From sequence record OZ335962.1: a stretch of DNA of 64,000 nt, one strand, 5' to 3'. Source of the DNA: a phage. Shown here piece by piece: positions 1 through 59,830 of the stretch (position 1 is the stretch's first letter; every line of letters starts with the position of its first letter). A model generated the notes under the pieces. The model saw only the letters and a program-made list of their open reading frames with translations. It made no database searches and was not told the origin of the DNA. The translations under genes and the position numbers were made by a program.

Positions 1-166
1 CAATACCAGGTTTAGGCCATTTCTTGATATAATACTGTAGCCCACGAGAATAAGTCAGACGATATACTCGTTTAAGCAATTCATTATCTTTATTCTTTTC
101 AAGAATTGCTTGCTTCTGCTTAGTTGATCCAATAGATGCTATTTCATTCAGAATTTTAAGAATCAT
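1..166 (-). CDS. 30: DNA ligase gp30, N-terminal 55 codons only; gene continues beyond the window start
   Basis: Reverse strand from ATG at 166..164 translates MILKILNEIASIGSTKQKQAILEKNKDNELLKRVYRLTYSRGLQYYIKKWPKPGI, which matches the T4 DNA ligase N-terminus as I recall it. ATGA overlap with the upstream ORF stop. Confidence 0.85.
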   Translation of the reverse strand, partial: MILKILNEIASIGSTKQKQAILEKNKDNELLKRVYRLTYSRGLQYYIKKWPKPGI

Positions 167-432
167 TGCTCATCCTTCAAGGTTTGGTTTACAGCTCTAT
201 TATAAATCAATTCATCATTAAGCTCAGGCAAAGACCTATGATATGTAGTTCTAACTTTATTTCCTTGCATCCAGTGCTTAACGTAAATGAAACCTTGCTC
301 TACACATTTTTTAAAAATTCGTTCGTCTTTTTGAGCTCGGAATTCTGGATTGCATCTAAAAAATTGATTTACGTGACCGTAATCACGTGTAGTATTACCT
401 TCATTTTCATAAATAGTGTGAACAACAAACAT
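163..432 (-). CDS. hypothetical early protein (position of T4 30.1)
   Basis: 89-aa ORF; its TGA overlaps the gene 30 ATG (ATGA coupling). No recognisable motif. Confidence 0.5.
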   Translation of the reverse strand: MFVVHTIYENEGNTTRDYGHVNQFFRCNPEFRAQKDERIFKKCVEQGFIYVKHWMQGNKVRTTYHRSLPELNDELIYNRAVNQTLKDEQ

Positions 433-1271
433 TAGAATGCTCCTTGGAAAATATTATCACCGCTAGTAGGTCTATTATACAAATACTCTATGCCACCAGG
501 TTTAATGTAGTTCCATGTCTGAAACGGATGTGTCTGATATGGATGATATAGATGATTATAAGGATTAAATCCAGGCGTTCTCCAGGTAGTGTTCCAAGGA
601 AAAGAATCGTTTTTAACCATCTTCTCAATTAAATCTTTTATAGCTTTTTCACTATCAAAACTTTCTTTATTTTCCTTCGGCGAAAAAAGCTTATTTTCTA
701 CATCATTCCATGTATAAACTCGCTGCGCAGTTTTTGGAATATTGTCACGCTCTCCTCGAGCCATCCAATAAACCGGAACATTTAATATTTCACTCGCGTG
801 GTCGCAGTGGTGAGCAAGATCGTCAATATAACAAATTACGTTATATTTCTCTTTTGCCTTTTTGAACAACTCTTCTTTTGAAGAATCATGACCACACATC
901 ATTACTTCTGAGAAGGCACCAGGAAAAAGAGCATTCAAATTAAATTGACGATTCAGCAGAGCGTCAATAGAATCACCCAATGCTGTAACAGCTACAAAAT
1001 TATAATCTTCTTTTAGTTTGTTAATTACGCACAGGGCATCTTTATATGGAGACAAGTAACGAATAAAATCTGATCGATTGTATTTTTCAATTAGCTTGAC
1101 ACCAAGTTCTTCATCACAATTAAAGAGTTTACCTGGAGAAATAAATTTCTCATCTTGGATCATTTTTAAAATATGTTCTAACGGAAGATTATATTTCTGA
1201 GCAAAATAAGGAAGTCCTGATTGCCAGCTTAAACATACTCCATCAATATCAGTTAAAATAGTAGGCTTCAT
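432..1271 (-). CDS. HAD-superfamily-like hydrolase (position of T4 30.2)
   Basis: 279-aa ORF with N-terminal DIDGV (HAD motif I, DxDG) and a later DD motif; in-operon coupling. Confidence 0.55.
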   Translation of the reverse strand: MKPTILTDIDGVCLSWQSGLPYFAQKYNLPLEHILKMIQDEKFISPGKLFNCDEELGVKLIEKYNRSDFIRYLSPYKDALCVINKLKEDYNFVAVTALGDSIDALLNRQFNLNALFPGAFSEVMMCGHDSSKEELFKKAKEKYNVICYIDDLAHHCDHASEILNVPVYWMARGERDNIPKTAQRVYTWNDVENKLFSPKENKESFDSEKAIKDLIEKMVKNDSFPWNTTWRTPGFNPYNHLYHPYQTHPFQTWNYIKPGGIEYLYNRPTSGDNIFQGAF

Positions 1272-1732
1272 AGAGAGTCTCTTAATAGGTTTAACACATC
1301 AATAAATTCAGCTTCGGTTAGTATTGTATCATCTTTTGTTAGACCACTAGCCATGCTGTGCTTCAAAACTTTTCCTTTTGAGGCTTGTAATGCATCACGA
1401 AAGCCTCTGTTTTGGATCGCTGCTTCAAAATATGCATTTGTGTATAATTCTTTCCACGCTGGTGAATATCTTGAAAACGGAACTCCAAGCCAGAAGAGGG
1501 TCCCACGGTCCTGAGCTCTAGCATAAGACCTTCCGGCTTGTTGGGCGGCAAGCCCGGATAACCCAAATATACGACGTTGTTGTTCAACATTTTTCACCTT
1601 ACACCCTTGGAGGAATCCTTCTAGACCTCCAAATTGAATACCATCCATAACGAAAGGCCATTGGGCGAAATTACTTAATGCACATGATGGCCATTTAAAA
1701 TTGCTTCTTATCTCTAGCTCAGACATTTTCAA
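1268..1732 (-). CDS. NADAR/YbiA-like (DUF1768) domain protein (position of T4 30.3)
   Basis: 154 aa; LSNFAQWPF...GIQFGGLEGFLQGCK resembles the FSNFAAWP...EHYFQAQK signature of E. coli YbiA as I recall it. Confidence 0.6.
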   Translation of the reverse strand: MKMSELEIRSNFKWPSCALSNFAQWPFVMDGIQFGGLEGFLQGCKVKNVEQQRRIFGLSGLAAQQAGRSYARAQDRGTLFWLGVPFSRYSPAWKELYTNAYFEAAIQNRGFRDALQASKGKVLKHSMASGLTKDDTILTEAEFIDVLNLLRDSL

Positions 1733-1925
1733 TACTTATAATTTCAACATCAGCCCAATGACCATAGCAAGGAAGACGAAATTCAACTGGCCAGTTAGGG
1801 TCCTTTTCTAATATAATAGACTGAACTTGTGGCTCTTCATATTCATCGGTATACGGACCTTTATACGCTACTTTATATGTGACTTTAATGTATTGAATTC
1901 CAAAAATCTTATTAATTATATTCAT
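1719..1925 (-). CDS. hypothetical early protein
   Basis: 68-aa ORF in the minus-strand early gene chain, overlapping both neighbours. Confidence 0.4.
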   Translation of the reverse strand: MNIINKIFGIQYIKVTYKVAYKGPYTDEYEEPQVQSIILEKDPNWPVEFRLPCYGHWADVEIISIENV

Positions 1926-2119
1926 ACTAATTCCTTTAATCCGTAAATAGGAGATAATTCATCACCCATACGAAGGTCTTCATTTCCATCTACCCAGGAA
2001 ACAATATAAGCTTCTTTTATTTGAATACCACTCCATTTAAATGGAGGTAGAACCTTAGAAATTAATCCAGGTATACCAACTCCCTTTAATTCAACAGTTT
2101 GACCTAAAAAGAATTTCAT
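1922..2119 (-). CDS. hypothetical early protein
   Basis: 65-aa ORF, translationally coupled in the chain. Confidence 0.4.
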   Translation of the reverse strand: MKFFLGQTVELKGVGIPGLISKVLPPFKWSGIQIKEAYIVSWVDGNEDLRMGDELSPIYGLKELV

Positions 2120-2406
2120 TAGAACCTCATCTGAAAACCGTGCGATTTAACATTACCGCCGCCAATATCAGAAATATTAATTTCACGCGCAATTGAAGGG
2201 TCAATGTCAATTTCACGATTGAGTTTAGTGATAGCTAAAGTATCGCGCCCATTTACAGTACGGAACTCTAAAGGACATACTACATTAACATAGTTTTTAA
2301 TCGATTCACTGGTAGGTTGCAAATGAGCAGGAAGGTCTTTAGGCGCCTTAGAGAAAACCACTTCACAGAAATTTTTGCGAGTATCAAAATAAGTAGTCAT
2401 AAACAT
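2119..2406 (-). CDS. hypothetical early protein
   Basis: 95-aa ORF; GGGGC-UUCG-GCCCC hairpin and an SD-like GAGGAAAA just upstream of the ATG. Confidence 0.45.
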   Translation of the reverse strand: MFMTTYFDTRKNFCEVVFSKAPKDLPAHLQPTSESIKNYVNVVCPLEFRTVNGRDTLAITKLNREIDIDPSIAREINISDIGGGNVKSHGFQMRF

Positions 2407-2447
2407 AGTATTTTCCTCAGTAAGGGGCCGAAGCCCCTCATTTTATT

Positions 2448-2825
2448 TTAAATATCAAATTCGTTAATAACTACATCAAAGATTGCTTCAAGATGCTCAG
2501 GTTTAGCTCTGTTACTCAGAATATGACGAATCCAAGTTTTAACCAGAAGCTTGCGATTAACACCATTCCAGCAAGGATGAGTCCCTAAATCGCGTTGACG
2601 AAAATCATCATCCAAAGCGATTTTGAAGTTGGAACCTTCCATTGTGATTGAAACCGTGATGCCATTTTCAAATCGCATATAAACGTAGTTAGGAGTCATA
2701 TACTGTTCAATTTCGCATACTGATCCATTTTGATGTTTCCAAAGACAGATAGTATCAATAGAACCTGCAATACCGTTAGAAACATATTTACGTTCAAAGT
2801 TGATGTAGTTCATTTTATTCTCCAA
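2448..2825 (-). CDS. hypothetical early protein
   Basis: 125-aa ORF with its own early promoter upstream (2850..2878). Confidence 0.5.
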   Translation of the reverse strand: MENKMNYINFERKYVSNGIAGSIDTICLWKHQNGSVCEIEQYMTPNYVYMRFENGITVSITMEGSNFKIALDDDFRQRDLGTHPCWNGVNRKLLVKTWIRHILSNRAKPEHLEAIFDVVINEFDI

Positions 2826-2880
2826 GATGTTTAATTGCGGTACAGGTATATAATATCATATCCTGTACCAAAGTAAACAA

Positions 2881-3213
2881 TTATTTTACTACTTTCCAGT
2901 GCTGCATGTCAAGTTTACCAACTTTTTTCATCTTCTCAATTAAGCGTTCGGCACGTTGGCGAGCTGTAACATAATACCATTCACCCAATTCATTTTGTTC
3001 AATTTTTCCAACGATTACTGTATTCAATTCATAAATCCAACCAGTAAAGAAATTATGAACTTGAATTGTAAAGGTGAAATCTGTTCCCATACCTTCTGTT
3101 GTTTCTACTTCAATAATATCACCTTCAACTGCCATTAAGAACCACATAGTTTCATCATATTTACCATTGAAGCATTTAGTTTTAACTGCAGCGTTCAGAT
3201 TAATCGTTTTCAT
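2881..3213 (-). CDS. hypothetical early protein
   Basis: 110-aa ORF; early-promoter-like GTTTAC/-10 pair upstream at about 3238..3270. Confidence 0.5.
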   Translation of the reverse strand: MKTINLNAAVKTKCFNGKYDETMWFLMAVEGDIIEVETTEGMGTDFTFTIQVHNFFTGWIYELNTVIVGKIEQNELGEWYYVTARQRAERLIEKMKKVGKLDMQHWKVVK

Positions 3214-3291
3214 TTTATTCTCCTTTGTTTGTGTAAGATAATACTATCACAAAGGAACCATACTGTAAACAACTTTGTGCAGTCTTTGGAA

Positions 3292-3318
3292 AATAAAAAA
3301 GGACTCCCGAAGGAGTCC
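3292..3318 (-). terminator. rho-independent terminator
   Basis: On the minus strand, GGACUCC-UUCG-GGAGUCC hairpin followed by UUUUUUAUUU. Identical to the terminator after soc. Confidence 0.7.
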
Positions 3319-3323
3319 TCAAC

Positions 3324-3500
3324 TTATGCTTTCTGCTTACCAAAACGAGAAGCATCATCTCGAAGAACCGCACGTGCTCGGCGCATGATCTTCTCAACAG
3401 TTTGATTGATACGAGAGTTCGACCCACGCTTGTAACCAGCGCGTTTAGAATCACCAACTTTCTTTTCAACTGCTTTCTTTGCTTTAGCTTGTTTTGCCAT
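3324..3500 (-). CDS. small lysine/arginine-rich basic protein (58 aa)
   Basis: ATG at 3500..3498 (MAKQAKAKKAVEKK...), followed by a strong intrinsic terminator. The track ORF has a 14-codon N-terminal extension that I trimmed. Confidence 0.5.
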   Translation of the reverse strand: MAKQAKAKKAVEKKVGDSKRAGYKRGSNSRINQTVEKIMRRARAVLRDDASRFGKQKA

Positions 3501-3896
3501 TATAAATTCTCTTTTAAATGAAAATGCAGGACTTATTGGCATTGCCTGCGAAAGCCCTCAAGGGGGTACTTAGGTTTTGAGTATTTACCGACAGGATAAC
3601 CATAAACCCGTCATCATACTTATAACTCTTATCTGTTGCACACCGTTAGCTTAAAGGTTCCGGGTTCGATTTCTCGAGGATAAGATATATACTGATGGAT
3701 ATATAGGCCTTGAGGCGTACTCCCGATTGGCCATCACCTCGGGGTAGCATGCACTTGCCGCTATAAGAATAACATTCAAGAGGTACACCGTAAAACTGCC
3801 GGGGTCTTAAAACTATAATGATTCGCAAATCATTAATCAGACAGTTCGACGGCTCCTCGATTTTAGCTCACACTAAGGCAGTGAATCTCCAATAAA

Positions 3897-4145
3897 TTAC
3901 TTCAGTGTTACCACAAAGTGACGAACTGCTTTTCGTGCGGCAGAAGCCAGAGGCTTAGCATACTTAAGTTCATCTTTTTCCTGAAGCTCAGCAGCTAATG
4001 CAGTTTGAGCAGGATTCAGATGTTTGAAATAACGCAGGATTTCAAGAGCTTCGGCTTCAACATCAATAGATGCGCCATAGTTTTCGTGACCATTATTCCA
4101 TGCGTTTCGTTGCAGTTCAAGAGCGTGTTGTAATTGTTTAATCAT
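3897..4145 (-). CDS. rIII: rIII lysis-inhibition accessory protein
   Basis: 82 aa, same length as T4 RIII; sits between gene 31 and the 30.x genes as in T4. Confidence 0.8.
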   Translation of the reverse strand: MIKQLQHALELQRNAWNNGHENYGASIDVEAEALEILRYFKHLNPAQTALAAELQEKDELKYAKPLASAARKAVRHFVVTLK

Positions 4146-4284
4146 TTAAAAATTCTCGTTAGAGATTAAAACTCGGTAGTCACGTTCTTCTGAATTTCAT
4201 CTTCTTTCGACAGATCTCTCAGTTGTAGACTACCACATAGAATTGTTCGGTTAACTTATTATTCCGACACCCAATTCATATTAT

Positions 4285-4292
4285 TATTTATA
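4285..4292 (-). promoter_or_regulatory. late promoter TATAAATA (minus strand), upstream of rIII
   Basis: Plus strand reads tatttata, the reverse complement of the T4 late-promoter core. Confidence 0.45.
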
Positions 4293-4628
4293 TCACTTAT
4301 AAAGACACGGAATAGCTTTATAGTGACAGGTTACGAATTTTTGTTTAATTTCTTTTGGCTGCTTAAGACCCAGAGCTACAAGAGGATGCGGAACGTTTCG
4401 AATTTGACCAACTGGAAGAGAAGTCAAATCACCAACTTCGCAGAAACCTTCAGGAACATCAGGACCAACAGAGTGAATTACACACAGTTCAGGAACTTCA
4501 CCTTGAACACGTTTACCGATAATAAGTCCTGATTCTGTAACTTCTTCATCACCGGCTTGTGCAGGTTCAGAAACTAAAATAACATATTCACCGACAGCAC
4601 GAATTGGTAGCTGTTGTACTTCAGACAT
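4293..4628 (-). CDS. 31: gp31 co-chaperonin (GroES analogue for capsid folding)
   Basis: 111 aa beginning [30 protein letters not shown], as I recall T4 gp31. A MotA-box-like TGCTTTA plus -10 TATTAT lies upstream at about 4640..4678. Confidence 0.9.
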
Positions 4629-4993: not shown

Positions 4994-5230
4994 TTATTTA
5001 CCTATTACAGTTTTATGATAAATTGTTCCACGTTCTTTAAGAGTGGAAAGTAATTTTTGATATTTTTCTAAATCAGATTTCCAACTATGCGGTCTATCAA
5101 TACAAACCCAGTTTGATTTATAATACTGTTTCCACCTAGAGAAAAAATATTTCTTATACTCTACAGCAAATGAAATGTTCTCGGTAGAATAAGAACTAAT
5201 TGCTGTGAGCTGTACCAAACGAAATTTCAT
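4994..5230 (-). CDS. hypothetical protein (position of T4 31.2)
   Basis: 78-aa ORF; stop abuts the cd stop/start region. Confidence 0.45.
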   Translation of the reverse strand: MKFRLVQLTAISSYSTENISFAVEYKKYFFSRWKQYYKSNWVCIDRPHSWKSDLEKYQKLLSTLKERGTIYHKTVIGK

Positions 5231-5811
5231 TATTCACCACAGAATTCGTTGATATTTTCCCAGTTTAACTTATTCAAGTTTTTCTTAGGAACATTAAACA
5301 CTTCAATACCTGCATTTCGCAGAATATCATCCCAGCCAGGTTTATTTTTATCGTATGTTTCACAATAAACCAGCTTTTTAATACCAGATTGAGCTATTGC
5401 TTTTGCACAATCTGGGCAAGGAGAAAGTGTTACATACATAGTAGCACCTTCAATTGAAGAACCGTTTCGTGCAGCAAACAAAATCGCATTTAGTTCAGCA
5501 TGAATTTCATTTTTAGACGACCATTCAGAGTGCGCGCTACGATGTTCTTTCGCCAAGACAAAACGATCAGTTGAACCAAATGATACACATTCAGGCTTAT
5601 GACCTTGAATGATAGTATGTTTAGGCTTATTCAGCAACCAACCTTGCTCAGCAGCATAATCACAGCAGTTCACACCACCTGCAGGTGAACCATTATATCC
5701 AGTAGAAATAATACGTCCATTCTTTTCAATTACTGCTCCTACCTTCCAGGAGCAACATTTTGATTCTTGTGATACTAAATATGCAATTTGAAGTACTGTA
5801 CTCGCTTTCAT
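5230..5811 (-). CDS. cd: dCMP deaminase
   Basis: 193 aa; cytidine/deoxycytidylate deaminase zinc motifs HAELNAI and PCPDC. Confidence 0.9.
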   Translation of the reverse strand: MKASTVLQIAYLVSQESKCCSWKVGAVIEKNGRIISTGYNGSPAGGVNCCDYAAEQGWLLNKPKHTIIQGHKPECVSFGSTDRFVLAKEHRSAHSEWSSKNEIHAELNAILFAARNGSSIEGATMYVTLSPCPDCAKAIAQSGIKKLVYCETYDKNKPGWDDILRNAGIEVFNVPKKNLNKLNWENINEFCGE

Positions 5812-6146
5812 TTCATAATCACCAGATAAGCAGATTTAGCAGTTTCAACACGATAAATTTCGTGACGAAGTTTAGTTATACTTTTAATAACAGAACTAAT
5901 TATATTCTGCCCATCTTTAAAGCGGTTTTTCTTATCAATAAAAATTGCGCCAACCATCTTTTTGTGAAGCTCAACTGGATACTTCGTCACAATAATAGCA
6001 TCATACACAGAAGGATGAATACTATTCACTAGAGTATCATTCATTAAAGTTATTCTAATGAACTGAGCTGTTTCAGAGTCAAGCGCTCTATGATCGCCAG
6101 TATCATTTTCAAGACAATTATCAATTATATCAGTTAAATTCATCAT
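5808..6146 (-). CDS. hypothetical early protein
   Basis: 112-aa ORF, overlap-coupled to cd. Confidence 0.45.
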   Translation of the reverse strand: MMNLTDIIDNCLENDTGDHRALDSETAQFIRITLMNDTLVNSIHPSVYDAIIVTKYPVELHKKMVGAIFIDKKNRFKDGQNIISSVIKSITKLRHEIYRVETAKSAYLVIMK

Positions 6147-53465: not shown

Positions 53466-54068
53466 TTATAGATTAAATCCTTCAAAATCAAGAGTATAGA
53501 TAGTGTATGTTGAATACTTTTTATACTCGTATCTATCCGCAATTCTAAATACACTTCCAGCTGGTATCATTACTTCTTGTTCATCTGAAACTAATTCCAT
53601 ATTACGATAACGATGGCTATCCGGAAATTTAAAACTCGGACTATATTCTTTACAACGTAGAGCTTTTATAGCATACTCCTGGAAATTAAACACCATAGGA
53701 GCTTTGAATTCAAAAATAACTTGTGTGTTATATTCTAATCCAGAAGCAAAATGTAGAGCTATATTTTTATCATATGAAGCTGATACTACTTTATCAAATG
53801 TAATAATATCAATTCCTTGATTTAACACCTGCTTAGTCTCAACTGGAACACCTCTCCAAAGAGGTTTATCGTTTGGAACCAAACGAGATTTGATTATTTC
53901 ATTTAACCAAGAATGATCGTCTGGTTTATTAGTAATACAATGAATTAAAAGTTCAATTTCAGATAAATTAAATCCTTCGGAAAGTAATTCTTCACGAATA
54001 GAAGCACGCACGGATGCATCCATTGATTTGATTTTAAAATCTTTTAATTGCATTGCTGAATATTTCAT
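53466..54068 (-). CDS. modA: ADP-ribosyltransferase ModA
   Basis: 200 aa with the R / S-x-S / E-Q-E triad (LWRGV, SASYD, EQEVMIP). Confidence 0.75.
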   Translation of the reverse strand: MKYSAMQLKDFKIKSMDASVRASIREELLSEGFNLSEIELLIHCITNKPDDHSWLNEIIKSRLVPNDKPLWRGVPVETKQVLNQGIDIITFDKVVSASYDKNIALHFASGLEYNTQVIFEFKAPMVFNFQEYAIKALRCKEYSPSFKFPDSHRYRNMELVSDEQEVMIPAGSVFRIADRYEYKKYSTYTIYTLDFEGFNL

Positions 54069-54688
54069 TCAACTACCTCAATATCATACACTTTAAATGT
54101 TCCAAATGAATCATGTAATTTTTCTTTTGAAATAGAAGTTATTTTATACTTTCCAATTGGAATCATCCATTCTTGTTCACGCACAATCATCATTAAGTTA
54201 TCAGTACGTTCTGAATCTAATCCATCAGTATCTTCATATGTATACTTAAACTCAGTATTAGGAGAAGAAAGTATAATATCACTGATATGGTCAGAATAAT
54301 TAAAAGCTTTATCAGTTTTTAAGCGAAATATTATTTCAGTGGAATATTCAACATAAGAAAAACCACATGCTGTGTGCAAACTAGTAGTAAATGAATCTAC
54401 TCTGTTCGTTGAAAACACTTCTCCAACTTGCAAATCTTTAATGAGTTCTTTTGTCGATTTTGATATACCACGATATAGCTGATAAGGCGATTTAGTTAAA
54501 TGCTTTTTAACGATTTTATTCAACTGCCGATGAAGGGCTTCATTCTTTTTGGCTTCCATACATTGCCAAAGAACTGACTGTTCGAAGTCAGTAAATTTTT
54601 CACAGACCTTTTTATACATATCATATTGAAAATCGACACTTTCAGCTTTTATAGATAACTGTTCAACATCTGCGAGATTAATAATCAT
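54065..54688 (-). CDS. modB: ADP-ribosyltransferase ModB
   Basis: 207 aa from the ATG with SD GGAGG; ART triad (LYRGI, FSTNRV, EQEWMIP). Confidence 0.75.
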   Translation of the reverse strand: MIINLADVEQLSIKAESVDFQYDMYKKVCEKFTDFEQSVLWQCMEAKKNEALHRQLNKIVKKHLTKSPYQLYRGISKSTKELIKDLQVGEVFSTNRVDSFTTSLHTACGFSYVEYSTEIIFRLKTDKAFNYSDHISDIILSSPNTEFKYTYEDTDGLDSERTDNLMMIVREQEWMIPIGKYKITSISKEKLHDSFGTFKVYDIEVVE

Positions 54689-59203: not shown

Positions 59204-59830
59204 TTAACCTCTATTCATAAAAGCATTAAAAATTTGGTCATCAATAGAAACATTTACTTTAGACTGTTTTTCTGATGGTAATTCATATCCACATATTACA
59301 ATTTTGTGATCAATATCAAAATACACAGAAGCAATATGATTAATGATGTTTTCAGTAAAGTCTAAATCAACATCAATATCTTTTTGACCACAGCCCAAAG
59401 GATAAATAATGCGAGTAATTCGATTATCTTTAACAAAGATTCCACCGACATACTCTGTGCTGCGTTTAAAATCTACACGCCGACGAAATGAAAAATATTC
59501 AGGCTCTTTATGAGCTCTGCTCATAGGACACAACGAGTAACTAGAATAAGAGATGTCAAATCCTACGCCTTCAATATGAGCCAAAGTATCATGATTAAAC
59601 CAATTATAATCGTACGCCAAATCCATTAGATCATAATATGTAAAAGGCACTGGATTAACATCATTAGTCACAAGCACGTAATTAGCAATTGCTATAATTT
59701 CATTGTTTTTAACGAATACAAACCGTGATTGATGGGAATGACCTGGACCCGCGTTTTCACGATTAATGATATAACACTGAGCACCTTTATATTTGTATGT
59801 ATCTTTACACTTGTGCATTTGATAGAGCAT
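59204..59830 (-). CDS. hypothetical early protein
   Basis: 208-aa ORF. Confidence 0.5.
   Translation of the reverse strand: MLYQMHKCKDTYKYKGAQCYIINRENAGPGHSHQSRFVFVKNNEIIAIANYVLVTNDVNPVPFTYYDLMDLAYDYNWFNHDTLAHIEGVGFDISYSSYSLCPMSRAHKEPEYFSFRRRVDFKRSTEYVGGIFVKDNRITRIIYPLGCGQKDIDVDLDFTENIINHIASVYFDIDHKIVICGYELPSEKQSKVNVSIDDQIFNAFMNRG

Follow-up and report, generated by a model that had tools for sequence, protein, structure and literature searches.

The window, that is, the whole 64,000-nt stretch of phage DNA analysed here, carries a gene (adfN, or gene 30.3; 1268..1726, minus strand) whose product is very probably a minimal, single-domain NADAR ADP-ribosylglycohydrolase that defeats DarTG1. 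Judged by its sequence, this gene is orthologous to T4 30.3 (adfN), i.e., the same gene in a sister Tequatrovirus. AdfN/gp30.3 is already known and characterised, and the window gene adds no new biology to it. Over its first 5 kb, the window shares 97-98% identity with many Tequatrovirus (T4-like) genomes, and the T4 gene order is kept: the ligase gene (truncated at the edge of the window), 30.1, 30.2, 30.3, 30.4, 30.5 ... rIII, 31, and cd. The window can thus be assigned by sequence to a Tequatrovirus genome. The predicted protein equals T4 gp30.3 in length and is identical to it at 149 of 152 amino acids (98%); the substitutions (R11K, K107R, and I125M) are conservative and lie away from E36, K43, and H123. 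At the nucleotide level, the two genes differ at 15 positions, 10 of which lie in codons for the same amino acid. The window allele therefore resembles T4 gp30.3, the anti-DarT factor NADAR (AdfN; PF08010), in its neighbours, in E36/K43/H123, and in an intact C-terminal helix, and differs from it by the three conservative substitutions only.

The earlier note on this DNA had described a 154-aa ORF at 1268-1732 and had given no strand. The ORF is real and lies on the minus strand, with its TGA stop at 1268-1270. In Pfam, the product matches Phage_30_3 (PF08010) over 138/138 profile positions with 233.5 bits (cutoff 36) and E=7.8e-70, which, together with the 149/152 identity to T4 gp30.3, places the ORF far beyond chance; it also matches PHROG 652. 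The proposed length, however, has to be corrected. The TTG at 1732 is an upstream in-frame codon that begins the longest form (154 aa) in the mechanical ORF list, whereas the T4 annotation begins the gene at the ATG at 1724-1726. From that ATG, the gene encodes a stand-alone NADAR core domain of 152 aa followed by the stop, and the catalytic residues carry exactly the numbers used in the literature, E36 and K43. Gene 30.4 lies directly upstream (1719..1925, minus strand), and its TGA overlaps the adfN ATG (ATGTCTGA). Gene adfN is richer in G+C (41.6%) than the window as a whole (35.6%), in agreement with a published proposal that it was acquired from bacteria. Homologues of gp30.3 are found in approx. 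1,500 phage records (1,511), mostly of Straboviridae, and the farthest of them, in Rhizobium, Sinorhizobium, and Ralstonia phages, retain 31-38% identity.

The protein had been described from its motifs as NADAR/YbiA-like, an identity now borne out by profile homology to YbiA/NADAR, by the fold, and by the conserved catalytic residues. Searches with the single sequence do not reveal this relationship: the window protein alone has no match to Pfam NADAR (PF08719) at E<=10, and phmmer against PDB sequences returned a chance match and no relative. Membership thus rests on profiles and structure. Among the 51 full-length family members, 20 match PF08719 individually (best E=1.5e-7). Moreover, a search of the PDB with the 51-sequence family profile yields E. 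coli YbiA (2b3w) at E=9.4e-4, in an alignment that pairs LSNFAphpF...EGFLQsLK of the family with FSNFAAWPI...EHYFQAQK of YbiA, and hhalign of the gp30.3 family against YbiA gives a probability of 94.2% and E=1.2e-7 over residues 17-123. The HMM search that the earlier note had put forward as a check was therefore negative for the single sequence and positive for the family, and the sequence-profile relationship to NADAR is transitive rather than direct. The outcome that the earlier note had named as refuting, the lack of a significant NADAR profile match, holds for the lone sequence but is overturned by family profiles and structure. The structural comparison with YbiA, proposed in the same place, came out clearly. 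The AlphaFold2 model of the window protein is confident (pLDDT 93.6, pTM 0.89) and has the alpha+beta fold of YbiA/NADAR proteins, in which small beta-hairpins flank a helical core bundle; the best three PDB matches found with it by Foldseek are the three solved NADARs, and the fold matches NADAR structures only. Membership of the window protein in the NADAR superfamily (PF08719/DUF1768, YbiA fold) is solid on the basis of family profiles and structure.

Both of the motifs on which that description was built are present. LSNFAQWPF, the N-terminal NADAR signature, occupies residues 17-25 (1652..1678, minus strand) and aligns to FSNFAAWPI of YbiA, with L17, S18, N19, F20, and F25 invariant in the 51-sequence family alignment; GGLEGFLQGCK occupies residues 33-43 of the 152-aa form. 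In the latter, E36 (codon 1619..1621, minus strand) and K43 (codon 1598..1600, minus strand) correspond to the Glu and Lys in the SEHYFQAQK segment of YbiA. Like H123, they are invariant in the 51 homologues, and the catalytic residues are thus kept. Their counterparts are E43/K50 in PnNADAR and E88/K95 in E. coli C7; in solved NADARs, the glutamate binds the distal ribose and the lysine binds the diphosphate (PMC11543638). Extended in register, the hhalign alignment sets H123 (codon 1358..1360, minus strand) opposite E125 of YbiA. The residue at this position distinguishes the NADAR subfamilies: it is Glu in the YbiA type, Asp in the DarT1-linked DarG1 type, and His in the phage gp30.3 type (PMC11543638, PMC11125620, PMC12945103). 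The window protein thus lacks the last-strand Glu of YbiA proper and has the last-strand His of the phage gp30.3/AdfN subfamily, in which it replaces the third catalytic acidic residue. According to the accounts given in PMC11543638 and PMC11125620, this His-type phage subfamily was defined in an earlier bioinformatic classification of NADARs.

The C-terminus of the protein deserves separate consideration. The AlphaFold2 model places a helix at residues 138-151, and the corresponding feature, an alpha-helix at residues ~138-152 (1271..1315, minus strand), is needed for full activity, as judged from the literature on phage RB69. Gene 30.3 of RB69 carries a frameshift through which its product lacks the last 15 residues, and RB69 is sensitive to DarTG1 (PMC11825919). 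The C-terminus of the window protein is identical to that of T4, and its ORF stays open to residue 152; unlike the inactive RB69 allele, the window allele retains the whole helix.

The function of T4 gp30.3 has been established experimentally. Johannesman et al. (2025) traced the resistance that T-even phages show to DarTG1 back to gene 30.3, which was renamed adfN (PMC11825919). Deletion of adfN makes T4 and T2 sensitive to DarTG1, ectopic AdfN rescues RB69, and T4 AdfN is impaired by E36A, K43A, or C-terminal truncation; T4 AdfN was found to be both necessary and sufficient for DarTG1 resistance (PMC11825919). In vitro, purified AdfN strips DarT1-modified DNA of its ADP-ribose; against DarTG2, which concerns thymidine, AdfN has no activity (PMC11825919). 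Hydrolysis of guanine-ADP-ribose on DNA by T4 NADAR has also been demonstrated in independent in vitro work (PMC11125620, PMC12945103), and the enzyme frees RNA of guanine-ADP-ribose in vitro, though more weakly (PMC11833690), so that DNA may not be its sole substrate. Furthermore, in a T4 transposon screen by HIDEN-SEQ, insertions in 30.3/adfN were lost specifically on DarTG1 hosts (bioRxiv 10.1101/2025.11.20.689424).

The suggestion in the earlier note that the protein might counter DarT by reversing ADP-ribosylation of guanine thus coincides with the established function of T4 gp30.3/AdfN, to which the window protein is 98% identical. By its similarity to T4 AdfN, the window allele would be expected to act likewise, i.e., to hydrolyse ADP-ribose from guanine in DNA and to confer resistance to DarTG1. 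In the proposed mechanism, infection of a DarTG1 host would release DarT1, which would ADP-ribosylate guanine of the phage DNA and so block replication; AdfN would then hydrolyse the ADP-ribose-guanine bond and restore replicable DNA, acting as a phage-borne 'orphan antitoxin'. In the active site, E36 would hold the distal ribose and K43 the diphosphate, while H123 would stand in for the third catalytic acidic residue. Some published observations do not fit a protein that acts by itself. In uninfected E. coli, T4 AdfN does not neutralise DarT1, and the non-T-even phages T5 and Bas25 are only partly rescued by it; DNA modification has been excluded as the reason, and it has been proposed that a T-even factor aids AdfN (PMC11125620, PMC11825919). 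Partial rescue and the failure in uninfected cells indicate that the in vivo mechanism of AdfN is incompletely described and that a T-even factor or context is needed.

Comparison with related proteins helps to delimit AdfN. DarG1, the DarT1-linked antitoxin of the BC4488 type (E. coli C7; Geobacter lovleyi, 8bat), has an N-terminal extension that is missing in AdfN (219 residues in 8bat versus 152, with 133 residues aligned) and a catalytic Asp where AdfN has His123. AdfN, unlike DarG1, has no adjoining DarT1 gene: the neighbours of adfN in the window are 30.4 and 30.2, and no DarT family match was found among seven flanking ORFs. In addition, T4 AdfN is no substitute for DarG1 in uninfected cells (PMC11125620, PMC11825919). 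E. coli YbiA (2b3w) and the Phytophthora NADAR (8bau) share only 18-20% sequence identity with AdfN and have Glu in the position of His123 (E125 in YbiA); YbiA is, moreover, a housekeeping enzyme of riboflavin metabolism, unlike AdfN. The AdfN proteins of Bas32 and Bas60 are NADARs with the same activity as T4 AdfN, but they belong to other NADAR clades and, unlike T4 AdfN, work outside the T-even context (PMC11825919). Other phage anti-DarT factors include AdfA (gp61.2), which counters DarTG as AdfN does but has no sequence relationship to it and does not belong to the NADARs, and AdfM (the Tk.4 macrodomain), which is directed at DarTG2 (thymidine) (bioRxiv 10.1101/2025.11.20.689424).

Several other readings of the window gene have to be weighed against an anti-DarTG1 hydrolase. 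Before experiments were available, comparative genomics had led Iyer et al. to propose that phage NADARs act on soluble molecules, and one may accordingly imagine that AdfN serves mainly to break down NAD-derived immune signals or soluble derivatives of ADP-ribose rather than to repair ADP-ribosylated DNA. The inability of AdfN to relieve DarT1 toxicity in uninfected cells (PMC11125620, PMC11825919) speaks for such a role. It is nevertheless extremely unlikely: by genetics and biochemistry, T4 AdfN is both required and enough for DarTG1 resistance and works on modified DNA (PMC11825919; bioRxiv 10.1101/2025.11.20.689424), and no defence that operates by signalling is known to depend on AdfN. 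Another idea is that AdfN reverses or tunes the ADP-ribosylation carried out by the phage's own Alt, ModA, and ModB. The earlier note had pointed out that the window also encodes ModA and ModB, and both were indeed found, at 53466..54068 (97.5% identity to T4) and 54065..54688 (95.7% identity to T4), respectively, on the minus strand. T4 alt lies approx. 3 kb downstream of 30.3, just past the ligase gene, so that alt would fall outside the left edge of the window if the T4 order holds; furthermore, T4-like NADARs are expressed early, together with ARTs (Iyer et al.). The hinted functional link between adfN and ModA/ModB was rejected, however: the genes are approx. 52 kb apart in the window, and their substrates differ. 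In the T4 annotation, the targets are proteins, namely RNA polymerase for Alt and ModA (its alpha subunit in the case of ModA) and S1, EF-Tu, trigger factor, and others for ModB, whereas the target of AdfN is DarT1-modified DNA. All NADARs tested so far work on base-linked ADP-ribose, mainly on guanine (PMC11543638, PMC11125620, PMC12945103), and adfN is dispensable where the host lacks DarTG1 (PMC11825919; bioRxiv 10.1101/2025.11.20.689424). Such a role in the phage's own ADP-ribosylation is hardly credible.

As E. coli YbiA ranks near the top in both structure and profile comparisons, the window protein might also be taken for a YbiA-type housekeeping N-glycosidase that removes riboflavin-pathway intermediates. 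This assignment has next to no probability: the last-strand Glu that defines YbiA is His here and across the gp30.3 family, the clean-up of riboflavin intermediates is of no evident use to a lytic phage, and the DarTG1 phenotype has been demonstrated for T4 AdfN (PMC11825919). Finally, the database holds shortened or fragmentary gp30.3 alleles (e.g., 109-aa and 89-aa entries), and the RB69 gene is frameshifted, which raises the question of whether the window allele is likewise an inactive, decaying copy. Its frame is intact to residue 152, its C-terminus equals that of T4, none of its three conservative substitutions affects E36, K43, or H123, and its nucleotide differences from T4 are mostly synonymous (10/15 in unchanged codons); decay can be given almost no credence. 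The window gene is thus best read as an intact adfN whose product would remove ADP-ribose from DarT1-modified guanine.

Gene 30.2 (432..1271, minus strand; 97% identity to T4 gp30.2) lies directly downstream, and its ATG overlaps the TGA of adfN (ATGA), from which it appears that the two genes are probably translationally coupled. Gene 30.2 is annotated as 'hypothetical' everywhere. The protein has no Pfam match of its own; however, members of its family give weak matches to HAD and NT5C models, and the HAD motifs D8-x-D10, K132, and D150-D151 are invariant. In its confident N-terminal part, the model resembles HAD hydrolases and 5'(3')-deoxyribonucleotidases, whereas the last ~50 residues, with many Pro, Tyr, and Asn, form a tail that is modelled with low confidence. 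The N-terminal domain of gp30.2 is thus predicted to have a HAD fold and to be phosphatase/nucleotidase-like. Genes 30.2 and 30.3 co-occur across approx. 1,400 Straboviridae genomes, and their distribution among genera is nearly equal (1,440 phage records for 30.2 versus 1,511 for 30.3). It is conceivable, though very unlikely, that gp30.2 is the T-even potentiator of AdfN or performs a second step on what AdfN leaves behind; in a weaker variant of this reading, AdfN might also clear guanine-ADP-ribose from RNA in vivo. A cofactor role of gp30.2 is kept as a low-probability lead only, since gene order in Straboviridae is vertically inherited anyway. In approx. 10-kb loci, 30.2 was not found beside the gp30.3 homologues of the non-Straboviridae phages P10VF (Rhizobium) and RSP15 (Ralstonia), and the available part of the T4 transposon screen names only 30.3/adfN, not 30.2, among the DarTG1-specific losses (bioRxiv 10.1101/2025.11.20.689424). 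In Vibrio phage phi-ST2 (locus 5007..5958), the NADAR homologue is followed by an overlapping HAD-type gene annotated as 5'(3')-deoxyribonucleotidase. This gene resembles gp30.2 at HAD motif I only (E ~0.05), and the pairing of NADAR and HAD genes may recur with non-orthologous HADs.

A second product from the adfN locus was also considered. ORF 30.3', which is annotated in T4, lies in another frame inside adfN (75 aa; 1363..1590, minus strand). It is open in T4, in the window, and in phage VR5, but it is closed by many stops in Acj61. Over the same bases, T4 and VR5 share 58% amino acid identity in the 30.3' frame as compared with 84% in the 30.3 frame. With its faster divergence, no sign of purifying selection, and closure in Acj61, ORF 30.3' was rejected as a second product and is probably not a conserved protein. 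A scan of 1..4300 for promoters and terminators gave 20 sites, as compared with 14.1 ± 3.9 in shuffled sequence. Two of the sites may be mentioned, with the reservation that the total is close to that of shuffled sequence: a near-consensus sigma-70-like site, TTGACA-18-TAAAAT (11/12), at 2883..2912 on the minus strand, just upstream of a 30.7-like ORF, and a GC-rich hairpin at 2423..2438, between 30.7 and 30.6.

Several records and one published description call for comment. In Escherichia phage ACG-C40 (NC_019399; locus 2265..2645), the gp30.3 homologue is called from an internal start as a 126-aa protein, so that 26 N-terminal residues, among them the invariant LSNF motif, are missing; several other 126-aa database entries look like the same mis-call of the start. 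The homologue in Rhizobium phage P10VF (locus 5004..5465; 38% identity, E=4e-19) is annotated as a 'putative homing endonuclease', probably a mis-annotation of a gp30.3/NADAR protein. Several metagenomic members of the gp30.3 family are named YbiA/DUF1768 by JGI, in line with the NADAR assignment. In the Methods (4.2) of PMC11125620, the T4 NADAR (gp30.3) construct is given as 'residues 1-208', while gp30.3 has 152 aa; 208 aa is the length of gp61.2, and the figure is probably a typo. As most database records say 'hypothetical protein', some of them with a truncated start, the present assignment is useful for annotation.

For the phage itself, the assignment bears on host range. The other anti-DarT gene, adfA (gene 61.2), lies in the window at 59207..59830 on the minus strand and is 95.7% identical to its T4 counterpart. 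As predicted from these two genes, the window carries two layers of anti-DarTG1 counter-defence, adfN and adfA. With both genes present, the phage would be expected to plate on DarTG1 hosts, a prediction that is useful for assessing its host range.
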